Assembly (NCBI GenBank): GCA_943356745.1 | Contig: CALRFT010000001.1 | Span: 139,984-203,983 of the forward strand | Direction: 5' to 3' | DNA: 64,000 bases | From: Parcubacteria group bacterium | GTDB taxonomy: Bacteria; Patescibacteriota; Minisyncoccia; Phycocordibacterales; CSBR16-119 | Part shown: in pieces, positions 1,738-58,297 of the stretch | Position numbering within the stretch: the first letter of the stretch is position 1 | Layout of the letters: each line of letters starts with the position of its first letter | Position numbers and translations under genes: made by a program | Notes under the pieces: generated by a model | The model's input: only the letters and a program-made list of their open reading frames with translations | The model's database searches: none | What the model was told of the DNA's origin: nothing

Positions 1738-2919
1738 TTAAGAACTGTATTTTTTTGCAAAAACCTGCCGAAATTTATCAAGTTCTTCAAAGTCGTCTTC
1801 TATTTTTTTCAATATATCCAATTCTTGTTTTTTTAATTCGATCATTTCTTGAAAAATAGTCACGTCTTGCTCAGTGTGACGTTCTACTTGTGATAGAAAA
1901 CGCTCGATAATTTCAGTAAGTTCCTTCAAAAATCTATCTTTTAAAAAGATAAATTCTTGTTCAATAATTATCGGCTTTACAAGCTTCGAATTTGTGCCAA
2001 GATTTGTTTTTTGGGAAACACTCACAACTTTTTTAGAATCTAATTTTACATTTTCCTTGTGTTTATTTTTCCCTTTTTGAGTTGAATCAAAAACCAAAGA
2101 CTTCACACGCACACTGTTTTTATTTTCACCAACAAGATCAACGTCACAACCTTGAGACTTGAACAGGTCAAAAACTTTTGAAATATCGTCCGTATTCAAA
2201 ATACGAACAACAAACTCTGGCTCATTTCCCTGGTATTTGTAAGCAGTGCGAGGAAGTACTTCATATTCCGTGATTTCATTTTGTTGCAAATACCATTTAA
2301 AAAACTGAGAAATGGTACGAACTTTCTGTTTTGATTTCAACAAAGAAACTACTTCAATAAGTTCTTCGACTGTTTTAATAGTTTCATCATCATTGTCCTT
2401 GTTGAAATCTTGATCAGTGTCTAGGGTTTGATTTTTAATCTCTCGAGAGTCTTCTAGAGGAACTGAAGAGACTTGAGTATTATCTACTAAAGCCTGTTGT
2501 TGATCTTGCTGGTTAGGTCCTCCCGTTAAGCCATCATGTTGATTCTGGTCATCATCTTTAGAAACAAAATCTTTACAAAAGTTTTTAACCTTGTCATCCC
2601 CATACTCCAAAAGAAATTCTTGAGGAAGATTAAGTGAGATTTTAAATTTCTTAATATTTTGTTTTGAATCATGAGGAGTTACATTTGTAAGTTCCAAACC
2701 TTTTCCTTGCAAACAATCCCATAAAGGAGTGATATCTTGGTTTTCCATCAATGAATGAAATTGTACGGAACTGGAATCAAGACTGATATTTTTAACAGGT
2801 TCAGAAATACGGAAACCATTGTAAACTGATTCACCTAGTGCATTACGTAAAAAAGTAATAATTGCTCCTAAAAAACTAGAGGCAATCAATCTGTCAGGCT
2901 TAATTAGTTGTTGTGTCAT
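1738..2919 (-). CDS. Hypothetical protein (393 aa, acidic/Q-rich middle)
   Basis: Long intact ORF with a good flanking terminator. No recognisable motifs. Confidence 0.45.
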   Translation of the reverse strand: MTQQLIKPDRLIASSFLGAIITFLRNALGESVYNGFRISEPVKNISLDSSSVQFHSLMENQDITPLWDCLQGKGLELTNVTPHDSKQNIKKFKISLNLPQEFLLEYGDDKVKNFCKDFVSKDDDQNQHDGLTGGPNQQDQQQALVDNTQVSSVPLEDSREIKNQTLDTDQDFNKDNDDETIKTVEELIEVVSLLKSKQKVRTISQFFKWYLQQNEITEYEVLPRTAYKYQGNEPEFVVRILNTDDISKVFDLFKSQGCDVDLVGENKNSVRVKSLVFDSTQKGKNKHKENVKLDSKKVVSVSQKTNLGTNSKLVKPIIIEQEFIFLKDRFLKELTEIIERFLSQVERHTEQDVTIFQEMIELKKQELDILKKIEDDFEELDKFRQVFAKKYSS

Positions 2920-3023
2920 GAGATATGTATTTTTAAATTGAACAATTGATTTTTAGACACCTTACTCTTTTTACAACTAAAAATCAATAAATATTGCCAG
3001 AAAAGCAATAAAATGGGATAATT

Positions 3024-3590
3024 TTGCTATCTTTTCAAGACTGTAATAAAAGTGGTTTTGAAACGTCTATATATATGAGTGACATGGAAATTGAGAAAAT
3101 CAAACAACAGTACCTAGAACACTATGACGAGCTATCCCCTGCTTTGTATCGATTTTTCGTGTTTCAGACTAGCAACACAGAGGTCGCAAGCGATCTACTC
3201 CAGGAAACCTTTCTTAAAACCTGGGAATATATATCCCAAGGGAAACCAATACAAAATCTTAGGGCTTTCTTATATCAGGTAGCGAGAAATATCCTGACAG
3301 ACTACCGAAGAAAAAAGAAATCGAGCTCACTTGAATCTCTCACGGAAACAGGTCTTGATTTTGAATCAGAAACAGACATTCTGGAAGAAGAAAGTAAACA
3401 CGATGATTTTCGATACGTTATCGAAAAATTCAAAATTCTAGACACTGAACAAAAAGAGCTCATAACCCTTCGCTATGTCGAAGATAAAAGTATTTCAGAA
3501 ATTGCAGAAATTTTACAAGAAAGACCCAATACAATTTCAGTAAAAATTCATAGGGCTATAGAAAAACTCAAAAACCATATCAATCAATAA
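3024..3590 (+). CDS. RNA polymerase sigma-70 factor, ECF subfamily
   Basis: Sigma region 2 (ETFLKTWEYI) and region 4 HTH (SISEIAEIL..NTISVKIHRAIEKLK). Alternative start at 3075 (MSDMEIEK). Confidence 0.8.
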   Translation: MLSFQDCNKSGFETSIYMSDMEIEKIKQQYLEHYDELSPALYRFFVFQTSNTEVASDLLQETFLKTWEYISQGKPIQNLRAFLYQVARNILTDYRRKKKSSSLESLTETGLDFESETDILEEESKHDDFRYVIEKFKILDTEQKELITLRYVEDKSISEIAEILQERPNTISVKIHRAIEKLKNHINQ

Positions 3591-3596
3591 AACAAC

Positions 3597-4961
3597 ATGA
3601 ATGATAACTTCAACAAGTTAATACAGTCAGCAAAACAAATAGAACTTTCTTCAGAAAAGAAAGGTATTATTCGTACGCGACTTGAAAGTTTTATTGAACT
3701 TACCCCAATCACACAAACAGTTTCAAAACCTATCAAATCTCCATTCACACCTCGAATTTCAATTTCATATTTTAGCAAGGCAATTAGTTTTGCTTTGATT
3801 GTTCTCATTGCAGGAGGAAGCACGATTTCATATGCGTCAGAAGACACACTCCCAGGCGACACGCTTTATACAGTTAAAGTAAATGTTAAAGAACCTCTTG
3901 AACAAAAACTTGCTCTGACTCCACAAGCAAAACTTGAAGTAAAAACAAAACAAGTAGAAAAGCGTCTCACTGAAGCCCAAACTCTTCTTCAAAAAAATGA
4001 TACTAGCCCAGAAAAACACAAAGAAGTTGAAGTACGAGTAGAAAAACAAGTAGAAGAAATCGCACAAACGATTAGTGAACTTCAAGAAAAAGGAGATGTT
4101 GAAACAATTCTTTCTGCAACATCAAAACTTCAACCTGTTCTCAAAGCTCACCAGGAAGCACTTCAAAAAGAAGTTAATGAACCAAGTACTGAATTACTAG
4201 CGAAATCAGTTAATCCTGTTGAGATTTCTACTTTTATGGATTCTGAAAATGAATCTTCAGACATAAGTCGTGTTAGTCTTGTTCAAGAAACAGAAACAAT
4301 TGAAGCAACTGAAACATCAGATGTATCCGAACTCAAATCATCTCTTGCTGATAGTCTTCTTAAAACAGTAGAAAAAACACTTCTTCAAGTTGAAGAACAA
4401 GAAACTAAAGCACTTGAATCAGTTGAGAACCTCGAAGTAACAGAAATAAACAAAGAACTTATTTCTTCTGTAACGGACAAAAAAGTAGAAGAAGCGACAA
4501 AAGAAATTGAAGAGATTAAAAATCAAATCTCTCAAAACGAAACCATCATCTCTGAATCTTCGAATGTATCAGAACCTGAATCAACTCTTGAGCAAACTAT
4601 CGAAGCTGAAGTTATTGTTCTCGAAACAACAATTAAACAAGACGAACTTATTCTCACTCTAGCTGACGCTGAAATTCTCCTTGCTGAATCTAAAAACCTT
4701 TACGAGCAAGGTTTGTATAAAGAATCATTAGAAAAAGCACAAGAAGCAATCAAAATCACCGCAATGATTGAGGCAAACAAAAAAATTGAAGCGGCTAAAG
4801 AAATAAAAATTGAAACAAAAACAGATATTTCTGAACCTGTTATCATCCCAGAAAAAATTATTCCTTCTGAAACTCAAATACAGATTGAAGATCAAGCGAG
4901 TCAAGCTATACAATCCCTTGAAAACTCACTTATTCTCAAACAAAATAAAAACGCACAGTAA
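3597..4961 (+). CDS. Membrane-anchored coiled-coil protein, putative anti-sigma factor
   Basis: Starts 7 nt after the ECF sigma stop. Single TM helix (ISFALIVLIAGG), then a long E/K-rich coiled-coil extracytoplasmic region. Confidence 0.45.
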   Translation: MNDNFNKLIQSAKQIELSSEKKGIIRTRLESFIELTPITQTVSKPIKSPFTPRISISYFSKAISFALIVLIAGGSTISYASEDTLPGDTLYTVKVNVKEPLEQKLALTPQAKLEVKTKQVEKRLTEAQTLLQKNDTSPEKHKEVEVRVEKQVEEIAQTISELQEKGDVETILSATSKLQPVLKAHQEALQKEVNEPSTELLAKSVNPVEISTFMDSENESSDISRVSLVQETETIEATETSDVSELKSSLADSLLKTVEKTLLQVEEQETKALESVENLEVTEINKELISSVTDKKVEEATKEIEEIKNQISQNETIISESSNVSEPESTLEQTIEAEVIVLETTIKQDELILTLADAEILLAESKNLYEQGLYKESLEKAQEAIKITAMIEANKKIEAAKEIKIETKTDISEPVIIPEKIIPSETQIQIEDQASQAIQSLENSLILKQNKNAQ

Positions 4962-6399: not shown

Positions 6400-8412
6400 T
6401 TAATCTAAAATACTCCGCAATACATCTTCTGGAACTTCTTTGTGTGAAGATGTTTTTTCTTCATAATGAACCTTTGTATCAAAAGTATTCCAGTTTTCAT
6501 CATCTGATTGTTTAGTATATTTTTCTAAAATAGACTCAGCTTCATTTACAAGATTTTGAAGTGACACAACATGAACGACTTCTGCTTTTTTTTGTACCGG
6601 CTTTTGAAGTATTTGTGGCTTGTGAGGAAGTGTCGGCTGCAGGTCTTCTTTCTTAGGCTGAGCATTCTTGAGAGCCATCGCTAATGCATTTTTGAGTGCA
6701 TTTTTATTTTCTTCACTTGCTTCTTTTTTACTAAAACGAAGATTAGTATTTGGAATATTTTTAGTCTCTTGTTTTTGAGTTTCAGTAGACTGGATAAAAT
6801 CCCTCACACCTTGTGGAAGATCTTTTTTAATTGGGGGTGTTTTCGGTTTAAACACTTTTGGCGCCTGCTGAATATTTTGTTTTTGAAGTTGCTTTTCTTC
6901 CTGTCTTGGAATTTCAATTTTTGGAATAACTATTTTACTCACAATAGGTGGTGGAGTATCCTCAACAAGCTGTGTTTTCTCTTGTGAAATAGTTTGCTGT
7001 ATATCAAGAGGAATAATTATCTTCGAAGGTTTTTCTTCTTCTTTTGGAGTATCAAATCGTGGTTTTGAACCAAACTTCTCAATTCTTTTTTGAGTTTGTT
7101 TCATTTCCCTATTTGTTTCAAAATGTGTACCGTGCCAATTATTAATAAATTCTTCAATTTCAGCTCGAGGTTTTGCAAATTGAGTACGAGAAGAATCAAT
7201 CACCTGTGTTCGGTAACTAATTTCGGGTTTTTCAAGTGGCCCAATTCCCACAGCAGAAAAAGGACGAGATCCCACATCGTCAATCATGAGAGAAAGGTAA
7301 AATTGAAATCGTCCAAGATTCACAATATCTTCTTGGGTAAATACCGGCGCAAAAACTTTCTCCAAAACCTCAGCATCCATCGGACCAACTCGATATGAAA
7401 TTGTTGTTCCCACGTTACCAAATACAGCATCTGAAACCGGCTCATCCATTTGAGCAATGTATTGGTGAGCAACAGTCAAAGCTAGTTTGTATTTTCGAGC
7501 TTCGGCCAAAATATCTGCAAAAGATTCATTTGCAAAGTTTTGAAACTCGTCCACAAACAAATAGAAATCCGGGAGTTTTGCAAGTTCTGACTTTGGAACA
7601 TCTGCACGACTCATCGCGCCAAGGTAAATTGCAGTAATAATCATACCTCCAAGAAGAGCTGCGTTTTGTTCTCCGATTTGTCCTTTTGAAAGGTTTACCA
7701 AAAATATTTTTTGGTTGTCCATCATGTCTCGAACATTAAAAGAAGACTTTGGTTGACCAATAATATTTCGAATGACTGGATTGGTAGTAAACTGCCCAAT
7801 CTTGTTTTGAATCGCAGGTACCGATTCGGCCTGCATACGTTCTGTATAGTTTGCAAATTCATCAACCCAAAAAGACCGGACACTTGGATCTTTCACATGC
7901 CTTACCACTTCATCTCGAAACCCCTTATCGGAAAGCATTCGGTTTACTGAAAGAAGTGTTGAGTTTGGATATTCCAAAAGCGCGAGAATTGTATTGTTTA
8001 AAATATATTCCATTCGAGCAGACCATGCGTCAACCCAAATCTTTTTAAAGGTAGACATAAGTCCAGACGATACAAGGTATCGTTTTGTTGGATCAATATC
8101 TTCCATAACATTAAAAGCAATCGGATACTCAGAATCAAAAGGCGCAAAATATACAACATCTTTCATTCGATGTTCTGGAATATAATCAAGCAGAGTTTCA
8201 ATAGCAGAACCGTGCGGATCAATAAAACACATTCCTTCTCCGTTTTGAATGTCTTGTGCTGCCATGTTTTCAAGTAGGGTAGATTTACCCATACCTGTTT
8301 TTCCAATCACATACACATGTCTTGCTCTGTCTTTATTTTTAATACCAAAACGCTTTCGTTCATTACGAAAGTCTGTAAGACCGAAATATGTAATTTTGTT
8401 TCCATCTGACAT
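6400..8412 (-). CDS. TraD/TraG/VirD4-family P-loop ATPase (T4SS coupling-protein-like), soluble, with disordered P/Q/K-rich tail
   Basis: Walker A (VYVIGKTGMGKST), DPHG box (CFIDPHGSAIE) and Walker B (LFVDEFQNF). No N-terminal TM helices. Confidence 0.55.
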   Translation of the reverse strand: MSDGNKITYFGLTDFRNERKRFGIKNKDRARHVYVIGKTGMGKSTLLENMAAQDIQNGEGMCFIDPHGSAIETLLDYIPEHRMKDVVYFAPFDSEYPIAFNVMEDIDPTKRYLVSSGLMSTFKKIWVDAWSARMEYILNNTILALLEYPNSTLLSVNRMLSDKGFRDEVVRHVKDPSVRSFWVDEFANYTERMQAESVPAIQNKIGQFTTNPVIRNIIGQPKSSFNVRDMMDNQKIFLVNLSKGQIGEQNAALLGGMIITAIYLGAMSRADVPKSELAKLPDFYLFVDEFQNFANESFADILAEARKYKLALTVAHQYIAQMDEPVSDAVFGNVGTTISYRVGPMDAEVLEKVFAPVFTQEDIVNLGRFQFYLSLMIDDVGSRPFSAVGIGPLEKPEISYRTQVIDSSRTQFAKPRAEIEEFINNWHGTHFETNREMKQTQKRIEKFGSKPRFDTPKEEEKPSKIIIPLDIQQTISQEKTQLVEDTPPPIVSKIVIPKIEIPRQEEKQLQKQNIQQAPKVFKPKTPPIKKDLPQGVRDFIQSTETQKQETKNIPNTNLRFSKKEASEENKNALKNALAMALKNAQPKKEDLQPTLPHKPQILQKPVQKKAEVVHVVSLQNLVNEAESILEKYTKQSDDENWNTFDTKVHYEEKTSSHKEVPEDVLRSILD

Positions 8413-10328: not shown

Positions 10329-10649
10329 TTTTGTTAAAATAATCATTCTTTTTCCATTGATGAAAAAGAATCAAAAAATCTAGACACTCGCATTTTCTAC
10401 TAAAAACAAACATTCTTTTCTAAACATTACTAAACACTTCGCTTCTTTTCCGTCTTACGGACGGAAAAGCATAATGTTCTTAACGAAAAGGATGTTTGTT
10501 TTCTTCACGTGAGAATGTGAAAGTGTCAAAAAATCAGAAAACAACTCCTGCGAGCTTTTTTTGACTTCCAACAAATTTACACCTTTTGCCAAAATTAAGA
10601 TTGATTGCGTTATTAAATGATTTGATTTCTGCAATATAAATTATATACC

Positions 10650-11249
10650 TTAAACAAACTTATTTTTACCTCTCTCACGAAATTTCTTAAGAACCACCTG
10701 TTCTTCCGTAGTTAAGATATGATCACCTAACCCTGTTACTCTTAAGTATGTATTGAGCTCGCGAATACGGGCTGTTTGAAGCTCGCGAATACGGGCTGTT
10801 TGAAGCTCGCGAATACGGGCTGTCATATAACCAAAGTCTATTTTACCATTTTTTGTAATTGGTAGAAAAATTTTTTCATGTTGAATTTTTTTCCAGCTTG
10901 CCATGTTACTGTAAGAATAAAACTTCTTTAAAAATTGAAGTTGCGCAATGAAATAAAGACCCTCCTCAACAGAAAGTTCTTTTTCTTTAAAAGATAATGA
11001 AAAAACTCTTGCATGGGTAACCATTTTATATTCATGATTTCTAAAATAAACATATCCAAACATATCAACAGTGATTGTATTAGATTTGAATATTTTTGCT
11101 TTTATATCTGTTTTACCAATAATACCTGTATTAGTTTCTCCAGAACTTACGACAAAAATACCCTTGTTGTTAATATGAGTTTGTTGTATATCAAAATCAC
11201 CATTTTGTGGTTCAAATAATTCTGAGATTTTAAATTCTTTTTCTTTCAT
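10650..11249 (-). CDS. Restriction-modification specificity (HsdS-like) subunit, half-size with a single target-recognition domain
   Basis: TRD-like fold followed by a conserved helical region that contains a TARIRELQ x3 repeat. Lies 1 nt downstream of the MTase gene. Confidence 0.65.
   Translation of the reverse strand: MKEKEFKISELFEPQNGDFDIQQTHINNKGIFVVSSGETNTGIIGKTDIKAKIFKSNTITVDMFGYVYFRNHEYKMVTHARVFSLSFKEKELSVEEGLYFIAQLQFLKKFYSYSNMASWKKIQHEKIFLPITKNGKIDFGYMTARIRELQTARIRELQTARIRELNTYLRVTGLGDHILTTEEQVVLKKFRERGKNKFV
10757..10825 (-). repeat. Perfect 24-bp tandem repeat (about 2.8 copies) inside the specificity-subunit gene
   Basis: GCTCGCGAATACGGGCTGTTTGAA occurs at 10757-10780 and 10781-10804. 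A third copy from 10805 is identical for 19 nt. It encodes ARIRELQT repeats. Confidence 0.9.
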
Positions 11250-11250
11250 A

Positions 11251-13266
11251 CTATTCTCCTTTTAAAACACGAGAAACTTCCCAAGCAAGATAATCACTAA
11301 CTACTTTTTTAAAATCTTCTTCAGTTGGACGAGTGTCTACTATTTTATGTTGTGAAAATGTCCAGTCATTACCGTTGAGTGTGATTACATCCTCTATATA
11401 TTCATCTTTTGTAAGATATTTTAGATAATCTTTACCATATAAAACTAAATCAATTACTTCTTGGTATCTTTCTGTAGCATTATTTGTATTTTTCAAGTTT
11501 ACATCTTGACCAGATTTTTTACGATTTTGACGAGAGTACCCATCGTTAGAAAAATCAATAAATTTAACCTTTTGTTTTTCGTCATGTTTTTTACCTACTT
11601 CAAAAACATATATAGCTGTTTGCACGCCAGCTTTTCCTCGAAAAATATCTGCCATACGAATACTTGCAAGTAAAGTATTTTTCTCAAGAATTTCTTTAGT
11701 GTAGGGTAAACCATTACCACTTCCGGCATTTTCTTGAATCAAAATTACTGCTCGACCATTATTCATTTTACTGAGTCCTTTTTTAACGAAAACAAAACCC
11801 TTTCCATCTGCTGAGTACGGTGGATTAAGTAAAAAAACATTAGCTGGGAAATCTTTATTTTTATTTTCCCCTTGCTGATATTTACCTTCAAAGTTTTTTA
11901 AACTATCATCGTGGATAATGTTTGTTGATCCATCCCCCATTAAGATCATATTGAGAACAGCAAGTAAATAAATATCTGATCGTTTTTCAATTCCAAGTAA
12001 TTGTTTGTTTTTAATTTCTACAATTTTTTGATTTAATCTTTCTGGGCTCTTTATATTTTTAGTAGCGTCATCAATCATTAGTTTCATCGATGAAACAAGA
12101 AACCCAGCCGATCCTGTCGCGTAATCCCAAACATAAGAATCCATATCAACCTTAGCAAGTTTTGCCATTAATATCGTTACATAACGGGGAGTAAGCACCA
12201 CATCATTTTTATCGGAATCAGGAATATTTACCCAAGCATTCAATACATTAAACAATTTACCTGTAAAATCTAAATGGTAAGCTGATGTGAAAATTGGGAG
12301 AATATTTTTTTCAACAAACGAGTAGATAGTTTTTAGCTTACTCTCACCATTAATCGGTGTAGATAACCCAGAGGAAATAAATACTCTTGATAAATCAGTG
12401 ATTATCATTTCTTTCTTCTCTGTTGGCAAATCTCGTTTATCGAGAAAATCTGAAATTTTATTCAAAATAACCTTACCATCATTATTCTCTCTACCGGTTT
12501 CACCTCGTAAATCTGTAATTTCAAGTGGTGCGACTTTGTTTTCAACCCCAAGTCCTGCCATAAGCATACCTGTTAAAAGTTCTACTCTTGACCCAACAGA
12601 AATCTGTAAGTCATCTTGCATTTTTTGATTTAGTGCTTTGAGATTGACCTCAATTTCATTTTCAATTTTTTGACTACGTTGTTCAACTTCTTGTTGTGTA
12701 AGTTCCAGTTTTTGTACTTCAGCAATAAAATTTTCAAAATTATTTTTTGCTAAAAAAGACAAATCAGAATAGTTACCAACTTTTTTTGGTATTCCCATAT
12801 TTTTTGCAGAAACATAATAAATACCTAACTCTGTCTTTATGTCACCAGTCTTATCTTCATATCCATTAAATCCTATAGCAATTACCTCTTTATAAGAATC
12901 AGTAAAATCAATTATTGCCTTTGCATAGTGAACTGCGCCATTAACTGCAAATCCATTTATATTTGCAAAATTTGGTGAACCATCTTTTTTAATATTTTCT
13001 ATTTCACCAAAATCATTTATTTTTTCTAATTTTCCTGAAATACCTTTTACTTCAATCATTACTGGAAATAATTTTTTATCTTTTGTTTCAAGTAGTAATT
13101 TAATATCGGGGTAATTCTTACCATCACCGCCGGTTTTTGATGGAGCTTGAACCATGGCATTTGCAAGCTCACTATTTATATCTTCTGTTTTGATAAAATA
13201 CTTAAGTTCGGAAAACTCGAGTTGGCGCTTGGCAATATTCTCAATTTTTTCTTCAATACTTTTCAT
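11251..13266 (-). CDS. N6-adenine DNA methyltransferase subunit (gamma-class) with an N-terminal PD-(D/E)xK-like domain; BcgI-like Type IIB or Type I HsdM-like
   Basis: MTase motif I (DYATGSAGFL) and motif IV (NPPYS). The N-terminal ~200 aa have YPDIKLL..(x20)..MIEVKG, reminiscent of a PD-ExK nuclease core. The protein is 671 aa and no HsdR is nearby. Confidence 0.65.
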   Translation of the reverse strand: MKSIEEKIENIAKRQLEFSELKYFIKTEDINSELANAMVQAPSKTGGDGKNYPDIKLLLETKDKKLFPVMIEVKGISGKLEKINDFGEIENIKKDGSPNFANINGFAVNGAVHYAKAIIDFTDSYKEVIAIGFNGYEDKTGDIKTELGIYYVSAKNMGIPKKVGNYSDLSFLAKNNFENFIAEVQKLELTQQEVEQRSQKIENEIEVNLKALNQKMQDDLQISVGSRVELLTGMLMAGLGVENKVAPLEITDLRGETGRENNDGKVILNKISDFLDKRDLPTEKKEMIITDLSRVFISSGLSTPINGESKLKTIYSFVEKNILPIFTSAYHLDFTGKLFNVLNAWVNIPDSDKNDVVLTPRYVTILMAKLAKVDMDSYVWDYATGSAGFLVSSMKLMIDDATKNIKSPERLNQKIVEIKNKQLLGIEKRSDIYLLAVLNMILMGDGSTNIIHDDSLKNFEGKYQQGENKNKDFPANVFLLNPPYSADGKGFVFVKKGLSKMNNGRAVILIQENAGSGNGLPYTKEILEKNTLLASIRMADIFRGKAGVQTAIYVFEVGKKHDEKQKVKFIDFSNDGYSRQNRKKSGQDVNLKNTNNATERYQEVIDLVLYGKDYLKYLTKDEYIEDVITLNGNDWTFSQHKIVDTRPTEEDFKKVVSDYLAWEVSRVLKGE

Positions 13267-13527
13267 ATTCTATTTATAAACACACCACGACTAAAGAAAA
13301 TTATTTTTAAAATAATTAATACGTTAATCTTACTACATGAAAATTAAATAATCAATTTTCGACCCTTTCATAAAAAGCGTAAAGAAAAAGCAGGGTATAT
13401 TTCGTAGAGACGAACGCTTGAAGCAAAGCGTTTAGTGAGTCTCCGGAATATATCCTGCTTTTTTAGTTTTTTATGATGGGTCTAGACTTTTTGTTTCTTT
13501 TTGGGTGATGCAAAAAGAAAAATAATT

Positions 13528-14001
13528 CTAAAACTCTTTCACTTCAATATTTTCTGGTAAATCCCTAACACTAATTTTAATAGTTTCTACTGGTTTTACT
13601 TTTTTATAACTCACATATTCTGTAGAATTTATTTTTTCAAAATCTTTTTTCAAAAATACATAAACATACCCTTGAGCAGTTTGTGGTAAATTCTGATATG
13701 TTTCTTTATTTACTCTAAATAAAACATCTCCATCAACAAAAGAAAAACCTGAACGACAACTTTTCTTTAAATTTTCAGAATTAAATATTGCCATAAATAT
13801 TGCAATATCTACTATATGAGAAGTAAAAACAGCAGGTTGACCATCAGGGATTGCATCGTAAGTTCCATCTTCTTTTAATTTATGATTATACGCTTGTCGT
13901 GGTTCAAACTCTTCTTCAATCTTAGAACCTGAACCATGAAAAACATAATCCCCTATTTTTTCCAATTCTAGTAATTTTTGTTTTTGTTGCGAGTATTCCA
14001 T
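13528..14001 (-). CDS. Hypothetical protein
   Basis: Intact 157-aa ORF with a terminator-like long hairpin downstream (13385..13455). Confidence 0.35.
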   Translation of the reverse strand: MEYSQQKQKLLELEKIGDYVFHGSGSKIEEEFEPRQAYNHKLKEDGTYDAIPDGQPAVFTSHIVDIAIFMAIFNSENLKKSCRSGFSFVDGDVLFRVNKETYQNLPQTAQGYVYVFLKKDFEKINSTEYVSYKKVKPVETIKISVRDLPENIEVKEF

Positions 14002-14004
14002 AGA

Positions 14005-14556
14005 TTAATTAAACTCATTCATCGCCTTCTCCACTCCATCTTTTTGAATAGTCTTAATAATTTTCATAACCTTATCCGAAAGAGATTCAATTTCTTTTTT
14101 ATCATCCTGACTAAAAGAAGCCAAAACAAAATCTCTTCGACTTTCTGGAAGAAGCGCATTTCCTTCTTCATTTTTTCTTGCAACTCCAATTCGAATTCGA
14201 GTAAAAGCTGAGGTTCCTAAAGCTTGCTCAATAGATTTAATTCCATTGTGTCCTCCAGAGCCTCGATTAAAAGAAACTCTAATTGACCCAACAGGTAAAT
14301 CAACATCATCGTACACAACCACAACATCTTGTGGTTTTTGATTTTGTTTTGAAAGATACCAAGCAACAGATCTTCCAGATTCATTCATAAATGTTTGTGG
14401 TTTTATAAAAGTCATAGCATAATGCTCGGCTTCAATACTTTCTGCATATTTATTTTCCTTCCATTCCAAAGACCAAGCCTCAGAAACAATCCAAGCAGCG
14501 TTATGTTTTGTATCTTCATATTTTTTTCCTGGGTTTCCAAGGAGTGCAATAATCAT
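14005..14556 (-). CDS. pth: Peptidyl-tRNA hydrolase
   Basis: LLGNPGKKYEDTKHNAAW, MNESGRSV and GGHNGIKSI motifs. Confidence 0.9.
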   Translation of the reverse strand: MIIALLGNPGKKYEDTKHNAAWIVSEAWSLEWKENKYAESIEAEHYAMTFIKPQTFMNESGRSVAWYLSKQNQKPQDVVVVYDDVDLPVGSIRVSFNRGSGGHNGIKSIEQALGTSAFTRIRIGVARKNEEGNALLPESRRDFVLASFSQDDKKEIESLSDKVMKIIKTIQKDGVEKAMNEFN

Positions 14557-15241: not shown

Positions 15242-16537
15242 ATGGCACAAAAAGATTCTGGGAGACTCACCCACGCAAATATTCCGATCATACAAGAAAG
15301 TGAATACTACAACATTCAAGGAATGTTTGAAAAAATTCAAGAAATCGTGATGTATTATGGATTTATTCCTGTTCATCTTCCAATGATTGAACATGAAGAA
15401 TTCGTAGCAAAGGCTGCTGGAAAACAACCTGAGAAAATCACAGAAACACTCTATGGTGTCAAACAACCAAAAAGTGGCGACAAGCTTAGTCTTCTTCAAA
15501 CAACAGCACCGGGATTTATTCGAACATATATTGACGAAAACATGATCGCGCTTCCACAGCCGGTTATGATGTACCGTTTTGGTCCACGATACCAAAATCA
15601 AAAAAATGGAACTCATGAATCTTTCACCTTCGACCTTGAAGTTGTGGGATCAGAAAAAAGTATCATGGATGCTCTTTTGATACGACTTGCTGTTTTATCT
15701 ATCGAAGAACTTGGAGGAAAACATATTTTTGTTCACATTAATTCTCTTGGAGACAAAACATGTAGACAGCACTATATCAAAGAACTCTCAAACTACTATC
15801 GAAAACATATTAATTCTCTTGATAAAGATGATAGGCAACTTCTCAAGACAGATCCACTTCTTGTTCTTAATTCAGAAAAAGAAGGAACAAAAGAAGTAAA
15901 CGCAAACGTTCCAGATCCACTTAGTTTTCTGACAACTGAATGTAAGAAACAATTTAAAGAGGTTCTTGAATATCTTGATGAACTTGGAATCTCATATCGA
16001 ATAGACAAAAAGATTACGCATGAACTTGATTCTGATAGTCACACCATGTTTGAAATCCGAGGATACTCAGAAGACGAGGAAGGAAATCATGACGAAGTAA
16101 ACAGTGTTATTCTCGCGCGAGGTGGAAGACATGATAACTTGATTAAAATGCTTGGATCGAAGAAAGACATTCCAGCAGTTGGAGCATCTATCTATGTTCA
16201 ATCAATCATGTCTATGCCTTGGTTCAAACCACACAGCCCACGAAATCTCAAAGAACCGAAAGTATATTTCATTCAACTTGGAACAGAAGCGAAAATGAAA
16301 AGTCTTGCAGTACTTGAACATCTTCGAAAAGCAAAAATTCCTGTTATGAAAGCACTTTCAAAAGACAGTCTTCAAGCACAACTTTCTGTAGCTGAAAAAA
16401 TTGGTGTTCCATACACAATTATTTTTGGTCACAAAGAAGCTCTTGAAGGAACTGTTATCATTCGAGCAATGAAAAACAGATCTCAGAAAACAGTAAAAAT
16501 TGATAAAATGATTGAGGAATTGAAAAAGATTAAATAA
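15242..16537 (+). CDS. Histidyl-tRNA synthetase paralog (HisRS-like, catalytic motifs degenerate)
   Basis: Full-length class-II HisRS architecture including a C-terminal anticodon-binding domain (TTAPGFIRTYIDE; ARGGRHDNL; AVGASIYVQSI). Motif 2 reads YRFGPRYQNQKNGTHESF instead of FRxERPQxGRxRQF. Confidence 0.55.
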   Translation: MAQKDSGRLTHANIPIIQESEYYNIQGMFEKIQEIVMYYGFIPVHLPMIEHEEFVAKAAGKQPEKITETLYGVKQPKSGDKLSLLQTTAPGFIRTYIDENMIALPQPVMMYRFGPRYQNQKNGTHESFTFDLEVVGSEKSIMDALLIRLAVLSIEELGGKHIFVHINSLGDKTCRQHYIKELSNYYRKHINSLDKDDRQLLKTDPLLVLNSEKEGTKEVNANVPDPLSFLTTECKKQFKEVLEYLDELGISYRIDKKITHELDSDSHTMFEIRGYSEDEEGNHDEVNSVILARGGRHDNLIKMLGSKKDIPAVGASIYVQSIMSMPWFKPHSPRNLKEPKVYFIQLGTEAKMKSLAVLEHLRKAKIPVMKALSKDSLQAQLSVAEKIGVPYTIIFGHKEALEGTVIIRAMKNRSQKTVKIDKMIEELKKIK

Positions 16538-55174: not shown

Positions 55175-55395
55175 AATTGTTTCTATGTTAAAAAAACCGC
55201 TTTGGGGCGGTTTTTTCTTTTCCTCGACCCTTGAAGAAAAGACGCAAAGAAAAACACAGACAAACTCTGATAAGAGACTTACGTTCAAGCGAAGCGGTTA
55301 GTAAATCTCCAGAATTTGTCTGTGTTTTTTAGTCTTTTCAAGTGGGTCTTGAGTTTTTGCTACTTTTTTATCAAGAAAAAAGTAGGTAAAAAAAA

Positions 55396-56308: not shown

Positions 56309-56523
56309 TAAAAAGAATACCTATTTCATATTATCTCCTTAGCTTTGTTTCGCTTCAACCTTGTTTACTAGAGGCTACAAGTACTCTTGTATAGTAGCTT
56401 TGTAAAAGGATTTTTGTTTTATCTTTCCAGTAAAACATTGGGATTGGTTTTCCTCCAATCAAGGCATACTCATCGAGATGAGTAACCGACGCTTTGTCTT
56501 TAACAAAAAAGACAATTTTCAAA

Positions 56524-58050
56524 TTGAATTATTCCACGAGCAGCTTCCGCTACCCGTGCCTTGTTACGACTTAGTCCCTGTCACCGAATTTACCTTAGGC
56601 CCTCCGTGAGGAGAGACTTTGGGTACCCCCGGCTCCCTTGACTTGACGGGCGGTGAGTACAAGACTCGAGAACGTATTCACCGCAGTATAGCTGACCTGC
56701 GATTACTAGCAATTCCAACTTCATATGGTCGAGTTTCAGACCACAATCCGAACTAAGAATGGTTTTTAAGGATTGGCTCAGTCTTACGACGTCGCGACCC
56801 GTTGTACCATCCATTGTATCATGCGTGTAGCCCAAGGCGTCTAGGGTCATGCTGACCTGGCGTCATCCTCTCCTTCCTCCCAGCCCACAATCCACGAATG
56901 ATGATTCATTCCTGAACTTTGGGCCGGGCAGTCTCGCGTGACACTTGTAACACGCTGATGAGGGTTGCGTTCGTTAGCCCACTTAAGGGTACAACTCAAG
57001 CCACGAACTGACGACGGCCATGCAACACCTGTCTAGCCGTCCCGAAGGAAAATTCTGGTTTCCCAAAATCGTCGTCTAGATGTCTAACCTTGGTGAGGTT
57101 TTTCGTTTATCATCGAATTAAACCGCATGATCCACTGCTTGTGCGAGTCCCCGTCTATTCCTTTGAGTTTTAGTCTTGCGACCGTACTTCCCAGGCGGCA
57201 GATTTAACGCGTTAGCTACGCCTCTCGAAGGGTCGATACTCCGAAAAGCTAATCTGCATCGTTTAGGCCGTGGACTACTGGGGTATCTAATCCCATTCGC
57301 TACCCACGGTTTCGTGCCTCAGTGTCAGAAATGTGCCAGTGTACTGCCTTCGCTTTTGGTGTTCCCAACGATATCAACGGATTTCACCCCTACACCGTTA
57401 GTTCCGTACACCTCTCACATTCTCTAGTCATACCGTTTCGAATGCATTCCTCGGGTTAAGCCCGAGTCTTTAACATTCGACTAATATAACCACCTACGCA
57501 CCCTTTACGCCCAATAATTCCGGATAACGCTTGAGGCTCTCGTATTACCGCTCCTGCTGGCACGAGATTAGGAGCCCCTTATTCATAAGGTAACGTCAAA
57601 AATTTCCTCCCTTATAAAAGATTTTTACACTCCGAAGAGCGTCATCAATCACGCGGCGTCGCTCCGTCACACTTTCGTGCATTGCGGAAGATTCTCGACT
57701 GCAGCCTCCCGTAGGAGTTTGGACCGTGTCGCAGTTCCAATGGTGGGGGTCAGGCTCTCACCTCCCCTAGGCGTCATAGCCTTGGTAAGCCATTACCTTA
57801 CCAACTAGCTGATACCACACAGGCCGATCTAGAAGCGATAAATCTTTACCCCGGAGGGACTATCAAGTATTAATCCACCTTTCGGTGGGCTATTCCTGAC
57901 TTCTAGGTACGTTCCTATGCATTACTACCCCGTTCGCCACTAACCAGCGTGAAAACTTTGTCCGAAGACTCCATTTCCACAAGGTTCGTTCGACTTGCAT
58001 GCCTTATCCACGCCGCCAGCGTTCATCCTGAGCTAGGATCAAACTCTAAC
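56524..58050 (-). rRNA. rrs: 16S ribosomal RNA (about 1.53 kb), not followed by 23S/5S in this window
   Basis: Reverse complement begins AGAGTTTGATCCTAGCTCAG and contains ACTCCTACGGGAGGCTGCAG, GTGCCAGCAGGAGCGGTAATAC, GGATTAGATACCCCAGTAGTCC and TTGTACTCACCGCCCGTCA. It ends with helix 45 (GGAA loop) followed by AATAATTCAA. Confidence 0.9.
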
Positions 58051-58297
58051 AATAAACTTAATAATCGAAATTATTAATTTGAAACGAAACAAAGCAAAAA
58101 AGATAATTTGTTGCTTTGTTTAATAAAAGGGTTATTCACACGATTCACCATGTATATTTCCATATACTTGTTTTTTATCGTTTGCATAACAATATCTTCA
58201 TATCCTAATTAATATATGAAGAATAGGTATTCTTTTTTCAAGGTAGTTTCCCTCAAATTTCTTTAAAGAAAAACGCCTTCTTTAAGACGCAAATACA

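Follow-up and report, generated by a model that had tools for sequence, protein, structure and literature searches.

Whether a restriction-modification enzyme can work with half a specificity subunit is the question raised by a two-gene locus in a stretch of 64,000 nucleotides of DNA from a Parcubacteria group bacterium (contig CALRFT010000001.1), to which, at its full length, we refer as the 64-kb window. The RM gene of the locus encodes a restriction nuclease fused to an N6-adenine methyltransferase, and the S gene downstream of it a specificity subunit with a single target recognition domain (TRD). A preliminary description had assigned the pair to the BcgI type, with a nuclease-methyltransferase A subunit and an S-like B subunit, rather than to the classical Type I systems. 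BcgI itself is a Type IIB enzyme with the target CGA N6 TGC. Enzymes of this type are few, the way in which they set gap length and cleavage distance is the subject of ongoing work, and BsaXI, the subject of papers from 2022 to 2025, appears to be the only one with a solved structure. Our analysis supports the interpretation as a BcgI-like Type IIB system of two genes, and we consider it probable that these genes are coupled and that the one-TRD S protein acts in an (RM)2S2 complex.

Gene content of the locus and folds of the RM protein

Both open reading frames (ORFs) were found in the ORF list with the sizes and the spacing previously given for them (Table 1). A single nucleotide, position 11250, lies between the stop codon of RM and the start of S, and the sequence GGAGA stands directly upstream of the S-gene ATG. 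The motifs quoted for the RM protein were likewise borne out, with YPDIKLL at residues 52-58, MIEVKG at 70-75, DYATGSAGFL at 381-390 and NPPYS at 481-485. In the Pfam comparison that had been proposed, N6_Mtase was matched by RM and Methylase_S by S (residues 4-158, 3.5e-13), and with motif I preceding NPPY the RM protein contains a gamma-class methyltransferase for N6-methyladenine, as claimed.

Table 1. Coordinates of the RM-S locus, its domains and motifs, and the island on which it resides.
Feature	Position in window	Strand	Description
Strain-variable island	10390-14006	.	S, RM and 157-aa ORF; 3.6 kb; blastn against sister strains
S gene	10650-11249	-	199-aa specificity subunit of half size, with one TRD, a single conserved helix and a connector
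Vestigial GAGAGAG tract	10670-10676	-	Codons R191-E192-R193; stop 6 codons later
Perfect 24-bp tandem repeat, 3 units	10752-10823	-	TARIRELQ-TARIRELQ-TARIRELN, residues 143-166
RM gene	11251-13266	-	671-aa ORF, fused restriction nuclease and N6-adenine methyltransferase (BcgI 'A' / BsaXI 'RM' type)
Gamma-class N6-adenine methyltransferase domain	11455-12198	-	Residues 357-604, Pfam N6_Mtase 8.2e-20
Methyltransferase motif IV, NPPY	11815-11826	-	Residues 481-484
Methyltransferase motif I, DYATGSAGFL	12097-12126	-	Residues 381-390
Helical connector, HsdM_N-like (inferred)	12232-12699	-	Residues ~190-345, all-helical in model
N-terminal PD-(D/E)xK nuclease domain	12712-13266	-	Residues 1-185
Putative catalytic core	13045-13110	-	P53-D54...E72-x-K74 (and invariant E33 upstream); alignment and model
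157-aa ORF	13528-14001	-	Upstream of RM, on island; membership in RM system not implied

The RM protein belongs to a large family, with more than 7999 homologues. The best 120 of these are 67-82% identical to it and mostly about 675 aa long, and the few named members among them come from metagenome-assembled genomes of Clostridia, Spirochaetia and Helicobacteraceae. In an alignment of 66 homologues most of motif I and, in motif IV, the PPY were invariant, and N481 nearly so. The REBASE-derived PADLOC model REase_MTase_IIG (PDLC03616) covers residues 19-669 with an E value of 2.6e-192, and a second PADLOC model of 637 positions, PDLC03602, matches the protein at 1.6e-43. Judging from the length of BcgI A, PDLC03602 is presumably the model for the BcgI A type, and PDLC03616 would then represent a sister of this presumed cluster. 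About 70 residues follow the methyltransferase core and the TRD sits on the separate S protein, an arrangement that differs from single-chain Type IIG/IIL enzymes such as MmeI, BpuSI and DrdV, where a TRD follows the methyltransferase in the same chain. Note that two proteins, P0087 (871 aa) and P0089 (859 aa), are putative single-chain fusions of RM with a half-S of one TRD and helix, and would resemble Type IIG enzymes. In one relative (L023) RM is split into ORFs of 428 and 243 aa (2019-4043), and some members of the RM family are therefore decaying.

The claim of a nuclease-like domain at the N-terminus was upheld on several grounds. In a full-length AlphaFold model of RM, with a predicted local distance difference test score of 81, an alpha/beta domain (residues 1-185) is followed by an all-helical part (~190-345), a Rossmann-type methyltransferase (~357-604) and a short helical C-terminus. 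A helical module of the HsdM_N kind thus follows the nuclease domain and does not replace it. Residue D54 starts the strand 55-60 of the model and E72 and K74 lie within the neighboring strand 66-74, a placement that in the model is the canonical PD-(D/E)xK arrangement, and we are confident in predicting this fold for the N-terminal 185 residues. A Pfam match to VRR_NUC is weak (E 0.018), but coincides at residues 39-81 exactly with the proposed nuclease core, and P53, D54, E72 and K74, along with E33, are invariant in the alignment. The comparison with known nuclease folds yielded values of 9.0 for the HsdR fragment 3h1t, 7.4 for the Type IIG enzyme BpuSI, 6.6 for EcoR124I HsdR, 6.1 for DrdV, about 6 for Hjc resolvases, 5.2 for a VRR-NUC domain and 5.1 for FokI.

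In BcgI A, Glu53 is part of a PD...EXK motif and the E53A exchange abolishes cleavage (PMC3592470), while in BsaXI the conserved residues E73, D90, E105 and K107 are essential (PMC11997821). The E33...D54...E72-x-K74 pattern of the window protein would be of the same kind, with Asp54 in place of Glu53 of BcgI, a correspondence drawn from the pattern and not from a superposition. With the whole RM model as query, Foldseek aligned Type I HsdM proteins over 415-550 columns, but BsaXI RM (8w2p_A/8w0p_A) over about 670-679 columns, essentially the entire query. The two RM proteins share their domain order and the acidic/D/E-x-K pattern, and yet phmmer and hmmsearch detect no sequence similarity between them: searches of the PDB with the RM sequence and with a family profile returned only weak matches to HsdM, the profile matching HsdM of StySJI/EcoKI, and did not recover BsaXI. 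Note that BsaXI RM is larger (about 915 aa), and its 'knob' and C-terminal 'paddle' (PMC11997821) have no counterpart in the 671-aa protein of the window.

The absence of an HsdR-like gene next to the locus, part of the case against a Type I system, was found to extend to all ORFs of the 64-kb window. Pfam and PADLOC searches found no helicase domain in the RM protein either, and within the window the system is without the ATP-dependent translocase that Type IIB enzymes also lack. The Type I arrangement of a separate HsdR with a superfamily 2 motor and a nuclease-free HsdM is not seen here, as the nuclease is fused to the methyltransferase. The window system shares with BcgI its two genes, the similar size of A and RM, a separate S-like subunit, the N-terminal nuclease joined to a gamma-class methyltransferase and the lack of a translocase. 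With the fused protein, the separate S and no HsdR in the window, the A plus B organization is preferred over the classical Type I organization, in agreement with the preliminary description.

The half-size S subunit and its helix repeat

The separate Type I-like specificity subunit of Type IIB systems appears to be supplied by the adjacent Methylase_S gene, although at half the usual size. The PADLOC model Specificity_II matches S at 1.4e-48 only over profile positions 12-201 of 405, and we therefore take the protein to be one half of a standard S subunit. Of the 120 homologues listed, 85 reach full size (300 aa or more, in most cases 336-349 aa), including one annotated 'restriction enzyme BgcI subunit beta', and many others have 165-270 aa. 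A tblastn search with the C-terminal halves of the 85 full-size homologues revealed neither a remnant of a second TRD (TRD2) beyond the stop of S (best E 0.36) nor any further S-like or RM-like coding sequence in the window. As no such remnant lies downstream, the half-size S is neither an artefact of ORF calling nor a sequencing split, and together with the half coverage of the profile this bears out the description of a 199-aa protein with a single TRD.

The relatives of the locus point to the origin of this form. The closest relative of RM (L022, 82% identity) is accompanied by a 193-aa S ORF that ends with ...SRERESNL at a (GA)7 tract (~6565-6580), beyond which an intact second TRD and helix continue in another frame. 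The same situation, an intact out-of-frame TRD2 behind a tract at the S midpoint, is found with (GA)9.5 in L002 (2026-2044) and (GA)9 in L023 (~4565-4585), and three further loci (L003-L005) have a G9 tract (~2995-3005 in L003) that precedes an intact out-of-frame second TRD and helix. Of the 36 short S homologues, at least 13 have tails encoded by such tracts, RERE or GGG, and several others end with GG; one full-size homologue from H. pylori keeps a G-tract in frame. In more distant relatives S is mostly full-size and uninterrupted. Note that a scan of genome contigs provided 16 fairly distant loci, and the closer relatives were found through contigs encoding the homologues. In the window, the junction reads CGT GAG AGA GGT and the frame passes through a tract of only GAGAGAG with no TRD2 behind it, so that the frame-shifting tract at the border of the first TRD and conserved region (TRD1-CR1) with TRD2, as seen in these six relatives, is missing here. 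Most likely the half-S arose from a tract-bearing ancestor by deletion of TRD2 and its helix, and it looks locked in the one-TRD form. For the relatives, the midpoint tracts suggest that BcgI-like systems switch by frameshift between an S with two TRDs and an S with one.

A second variable element lies directly after the TRD, where the conserved helix begins; there, Tandem Repeats Finder reports a repeat with a period of 24, 2.8 copies and 100% matches (10756-10823). S is best matched in the database by P0121 (191 aa), which is the same sequence minus one repeat unit, and whose contig (L001; ENA ERZ27280302:k141_742120) also encodes the exact RM protein. Looked up among contigs as an exact sequence, the 199-aa S returned no record. 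Aligned over 12,576 bp, the L001 locus and the window show 0 mismatches and a single 24-nt gap, two units against three, and a 17.3-kb stretch of the same comparison gave the same result. With an alignment otherwise identical, these are two public assemblies of essentially one genome that differ by one repeat unit, which may represent a polymorphism within a population, a difference between samples, or a choice made by the assembler.

Across the S family the 8-residue unit xxR[IV]RELE occurs in 1-3 copies, often perfect ones, and an in-frame helix repeat of variable number thus seems to be a property of these genes. In full-size S proteins (at least 300 aa) we counted 0 units in 1 case, 1 in 16, 2 in 61 and 3 in 1, and in the shorter forms 0 units in 0 cases, 1 in 2, 2 in 14 and 3 in 12. 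Three-unit helices are enriched in the shorter proteins (12/28 as compared to 1/79), with a Fisher p of ~1e-7 that ignores relatedness; the counts are anchor-based, and P0136 was over-counted by one.

Both devices have counterparts in Type I systems. In the Type IC system NgoAV of Neisseria gonorrhoeae, LEAT helix repeats, present 0-3 times in hsdS, shift the gap from N6 to N7, and a poly-G frameshift yields a functional truncated HsdS with the palindromic target GCA N8 TGC (PMC6789123). The S family of the window has an 8-aa repeat in 1-3 copies and a midpoint (GA)n or poly-G tract, whereas NgoAV is of Type I, with HsdM and the HsdR translocase as separate proteins, and its repeat unit has 4 aa. 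In EcoR124I and EcoR124II, also of Type IC, TAEL occurs two or three times in the central conserved helix and the gap changes by 1 bp (PMC3874165, PMC3320862), and the step from one to two LEAT units in NgoAV likewise adds 1 bp (PMC3874165, PMC6789123). Each unit of the window repeat would lengthen the S helix behind the TRD by 8 residues, and copy number may set the gap of the target. If ~4 residues account for 1 bp here as they do in Type I systems, each unit would add ~2 bp; the geometric upper bound for an 8-residue unit is 12 angstroms, or ~3.5 bp. Note that in the window gene only this helix repeat can still vary, since TRD2 has been lost and the tract survives only as a vestige.

Proposed assembly and alternative explanations

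In the assembly that we propose, RM and S would be translationally coupled and each RM chain would contribute one PD-(D/E)xK site and one gamma-class methyltransferase site, while recognition of DNA would come from S with its single TRD and the long helix behind it. Two S chains would pair by antiparallel packing of their helices, with one RM bound by each, and the resulting (RM)2S2 would be the equivalent of the BsaXI (RM)2S complex or the BcgI A2B protomer. The predicted target is a bipartite palindrome, a half-site followed by an N-gap and the inverted half-site, in which one adenine per half-site would be methylated; unmodified DNA would receive a double-strand cut on either side of the site, at fixed distances from it. 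We arrive at this stoichiometry and at a palindromic target because an S with one TRD would need to dimerize via its single helix. The canonical Type IIB composition of one two-TRD S for two RM is not found here, as S lacks a second TRD in the gene and elsewhere in the window. In BcgI, in contrast, the B subunit has two TRDs and one chain binds two A, and the palindromic nature of the predicted target is a further difference from that enzyme.

For this proposal, direct precedents come from the engineered half-S of BsaXI and from NgoAV of Type I. The BcgI protomer is an A2B complex with B in the center (PMC3592470), and in the (RM)2S complex of BsaXI the two S helices form an antiparallel bundle (PMC11997821). 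Truncated HsdS of EcoR124I and EcoDXXI and the natural short HsdS of NgoAV act as homodimers on palindromes, with GAA N7 TTC as the target of EcoR124I-NT (PMC3874165, PMC3320862, PMC6789123). The single-TRD forms of EcoR124I and EcoDXXI resemble the proposed window S in this respect, but they belong to Type I systems and originate from the laboratory, by transposon insertion or engineered deletion. An engineered TRD1-CR1 of BsaXI together with RM cleaves outside the symmetric site AC N5 GT (PMC9159934), and this result takes the function of a one-TRD S beyond a mere analogy to Type I systems. The architecture that is man-made in BsaXI occurs naturally in the window.

Several points weigh against the proposal. 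The invariance of the catalytic residues carries less weight than it may seem to, and is by itself modest evidence, because the aligned homologues are fairly close (68-82% identity). The difference between two and three repeat units could be an assembly choice and not a true polymorphism. The locus is dispensable, as most sister-strain contigs lack it. In BcgI-like enzymes, restriction and modification both require S, and with S truncated the system could for this reason simply be OFF, without harm to the cell. In BsaXI, CR1 tolerated C-terminal deletions of 8-32 aa with the N5 gap unchanged (PMC9159934). This speaks against gap length simply following helix length in Type IIB enzymes and makes an effect of the repeat on specificity uncertain; in our assessment, the chances that there is such an effect are about even.

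An inactive relic, in which loss of TRD2 and its conserved region (CR2) leaves S unable to assemble and the locus is silently OFF but undecayed, is the main alternative, unlikely although of some weight. In its favor, S genes with two TRDs are present in the closest relatives, most sister-strain contigs are without the island, and the same truncation arises in relatives by tract frameshift and could be their OFF state; furthermore, BcgI-like systems of H. pylori have been described as inactive (PMC3936762), and for NgoAVIII a methylated motif was not detected (PMC6789123). Nevertheless, the 2-kb RM ORF is intact and has kept every alignment-invariant residue, including those proposed to be catalytic, in a host genome that appears to be small and compact. 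S retains a complete TRD, helix and connector, with a repeat change that is in frame, and half-S proteins are active in BsaXI, EcoR124I, EcoDXXI and NgoAV (PMC9159934, PMC3874165, PMC6789123).

Pairing of the half-S with another half-S or an orphan TRD protein encoded elsewhere, which would create an asymmetric target, appears quite improbable to us. Co-expressed N- and C-terminal half-S proteins of EcoDXXI do restore wild-type specificity (PMC3874165), orphan TRD proteins are numerous in genomes (PMC9159934), and two of the relatives (L002 and L012) carry two adjacent half-S ORFs; the island of the window, however, carries a single one, and the window holds no second S-like coding sequence, with a remainder of the genome of at least 518 kb. 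A classical Type I pair of M and S with a distant HsdR and an N-terminal extension other than a nuclease, which the similarity of methyltransferase core and helical domain to HsdM and of S to Type I-like Methylase_S proteins might suggest, is effectively refuted by the confidently predicted nuclease fold with its invariant residues, the full-length match to a Type IIG nuclease-methyltransferase model and the lack of HsdR in the window.

The natural one-TRD S is a test case for whether an (RM)2S2 complex works in nature, and S alleles with two and three units in the same background are a ready test of whether helix length sets the gap of a Type IIB enzyme. Specificity switching is well known for systems of Types I and III, and the junction tracts across the family suggest that it takes place in BcgI-like systems as well. 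Combining both observations, the S genes of the BcgI family might carry a two-part device for varying specificity, midpoint tract and helix repeat, with the window as a locked end-state, a reading that we offer tentatively, as possible rather than likely. If it holds, the (GA)n or poly-G tract toggles S between a two-TRD form with an asymmetric target and a one-TRD form with a palindromic target, while the slippage-prone 24-bp repeat tunes the gap length in 1-3 units. The window would then represent a natural (RM)2S2 Type IIB enzyme whose repeat still varies, two against three units, within one uncultivated population, and co-existing cells would restrict and methylate different sites. A non-exhaustive search of the literature found no description of midpoint tracts or helix repeats as such devices in BcgI-like S genes. 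What is new here is modest, a locked half-S with a vestigial tract, a helix repeat of two or three units and an island absent from sister strains; the features of the S gene mirror those known from the Type I system NgoAV, and the locus is otherwise a routine accessory defence locus.

A strain-variable island and its surroundings

The locus resides on an island that is variable among strains. Contigs encoding an identical histidyl-tRNA synthetase (HisRS) were taken as sister strains, and in blastn comparisons four of them (L024, L026, L027 and L028) have flanks 96-99% identical to the window that end at 10389 and 14007. In place of S, RM and the 157-aa ORF they contain an unrelated segment of 985 bp with two tiny ORFs, and this island-free arrangement is found on more contigs than the island-bearing one. 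The GC content of the island, 0.29-0.32, is lower than that of most 1-kb windows; no integrase and no att-like flanking direct repeats were found at its boundaries. The low GC content, the absence from sister strains and the named relatives of RM in unrelated phyla fit a dispensable defence locus that was probably acquired horizontally. Part of the replacement segment (L024 6585-6755) is 77.5% identical to positions 55212-55386 of the window, and a dispersed short element may therefore be present.

The 157-aa ORF is gained or lost together with RM and S, and the upstream neighbors differ in the RM relatives. Pfam gives it only a weak match to DUF6886 (E 0.0024), and searches of NCBIfam, PADLOC and PHROGs returned no family for it. 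The gap of 260 nt that separates it from the RM start contains a 24-nt inverted repeat (13385-13408 and 13440-13463, 88% complementary, with a 31-nt loop) that could be a terminator or an operator.

The genes around the locus are of a housekeeping nature, encoding an S1-domain protein, peptidyl-tRNA hydrolase, signal peptidase, HisRS, deformylase and formyltransferase, and among the window's largest ORFs are those for DnaE, SecA, RNase J, a solute-binding protein, an amine oxidase and a photolyase-related protein, and one 687-aa ORF without a Pfam match. A complete 16S rRNA gene (56522-58054, minus strand) has SecA ~3 kb downstream, with no 23S rRNA match in the window, and the rRNA genes appear to be unlinked. 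Two HisRS-family genes, of 431 and 439 aa, lie within 7 kb of each other, at 15242-16537 on the plus strand and at ~21.5-22.8 kb (L025 14270-15589). A homologue of VirD4/TraG-type coupling proteins (TrwB_AAD_bind, T4SS-DNA_transf; 6400-8412, minus strand) adjoins a small membrane protein and is kept in the sister strains.

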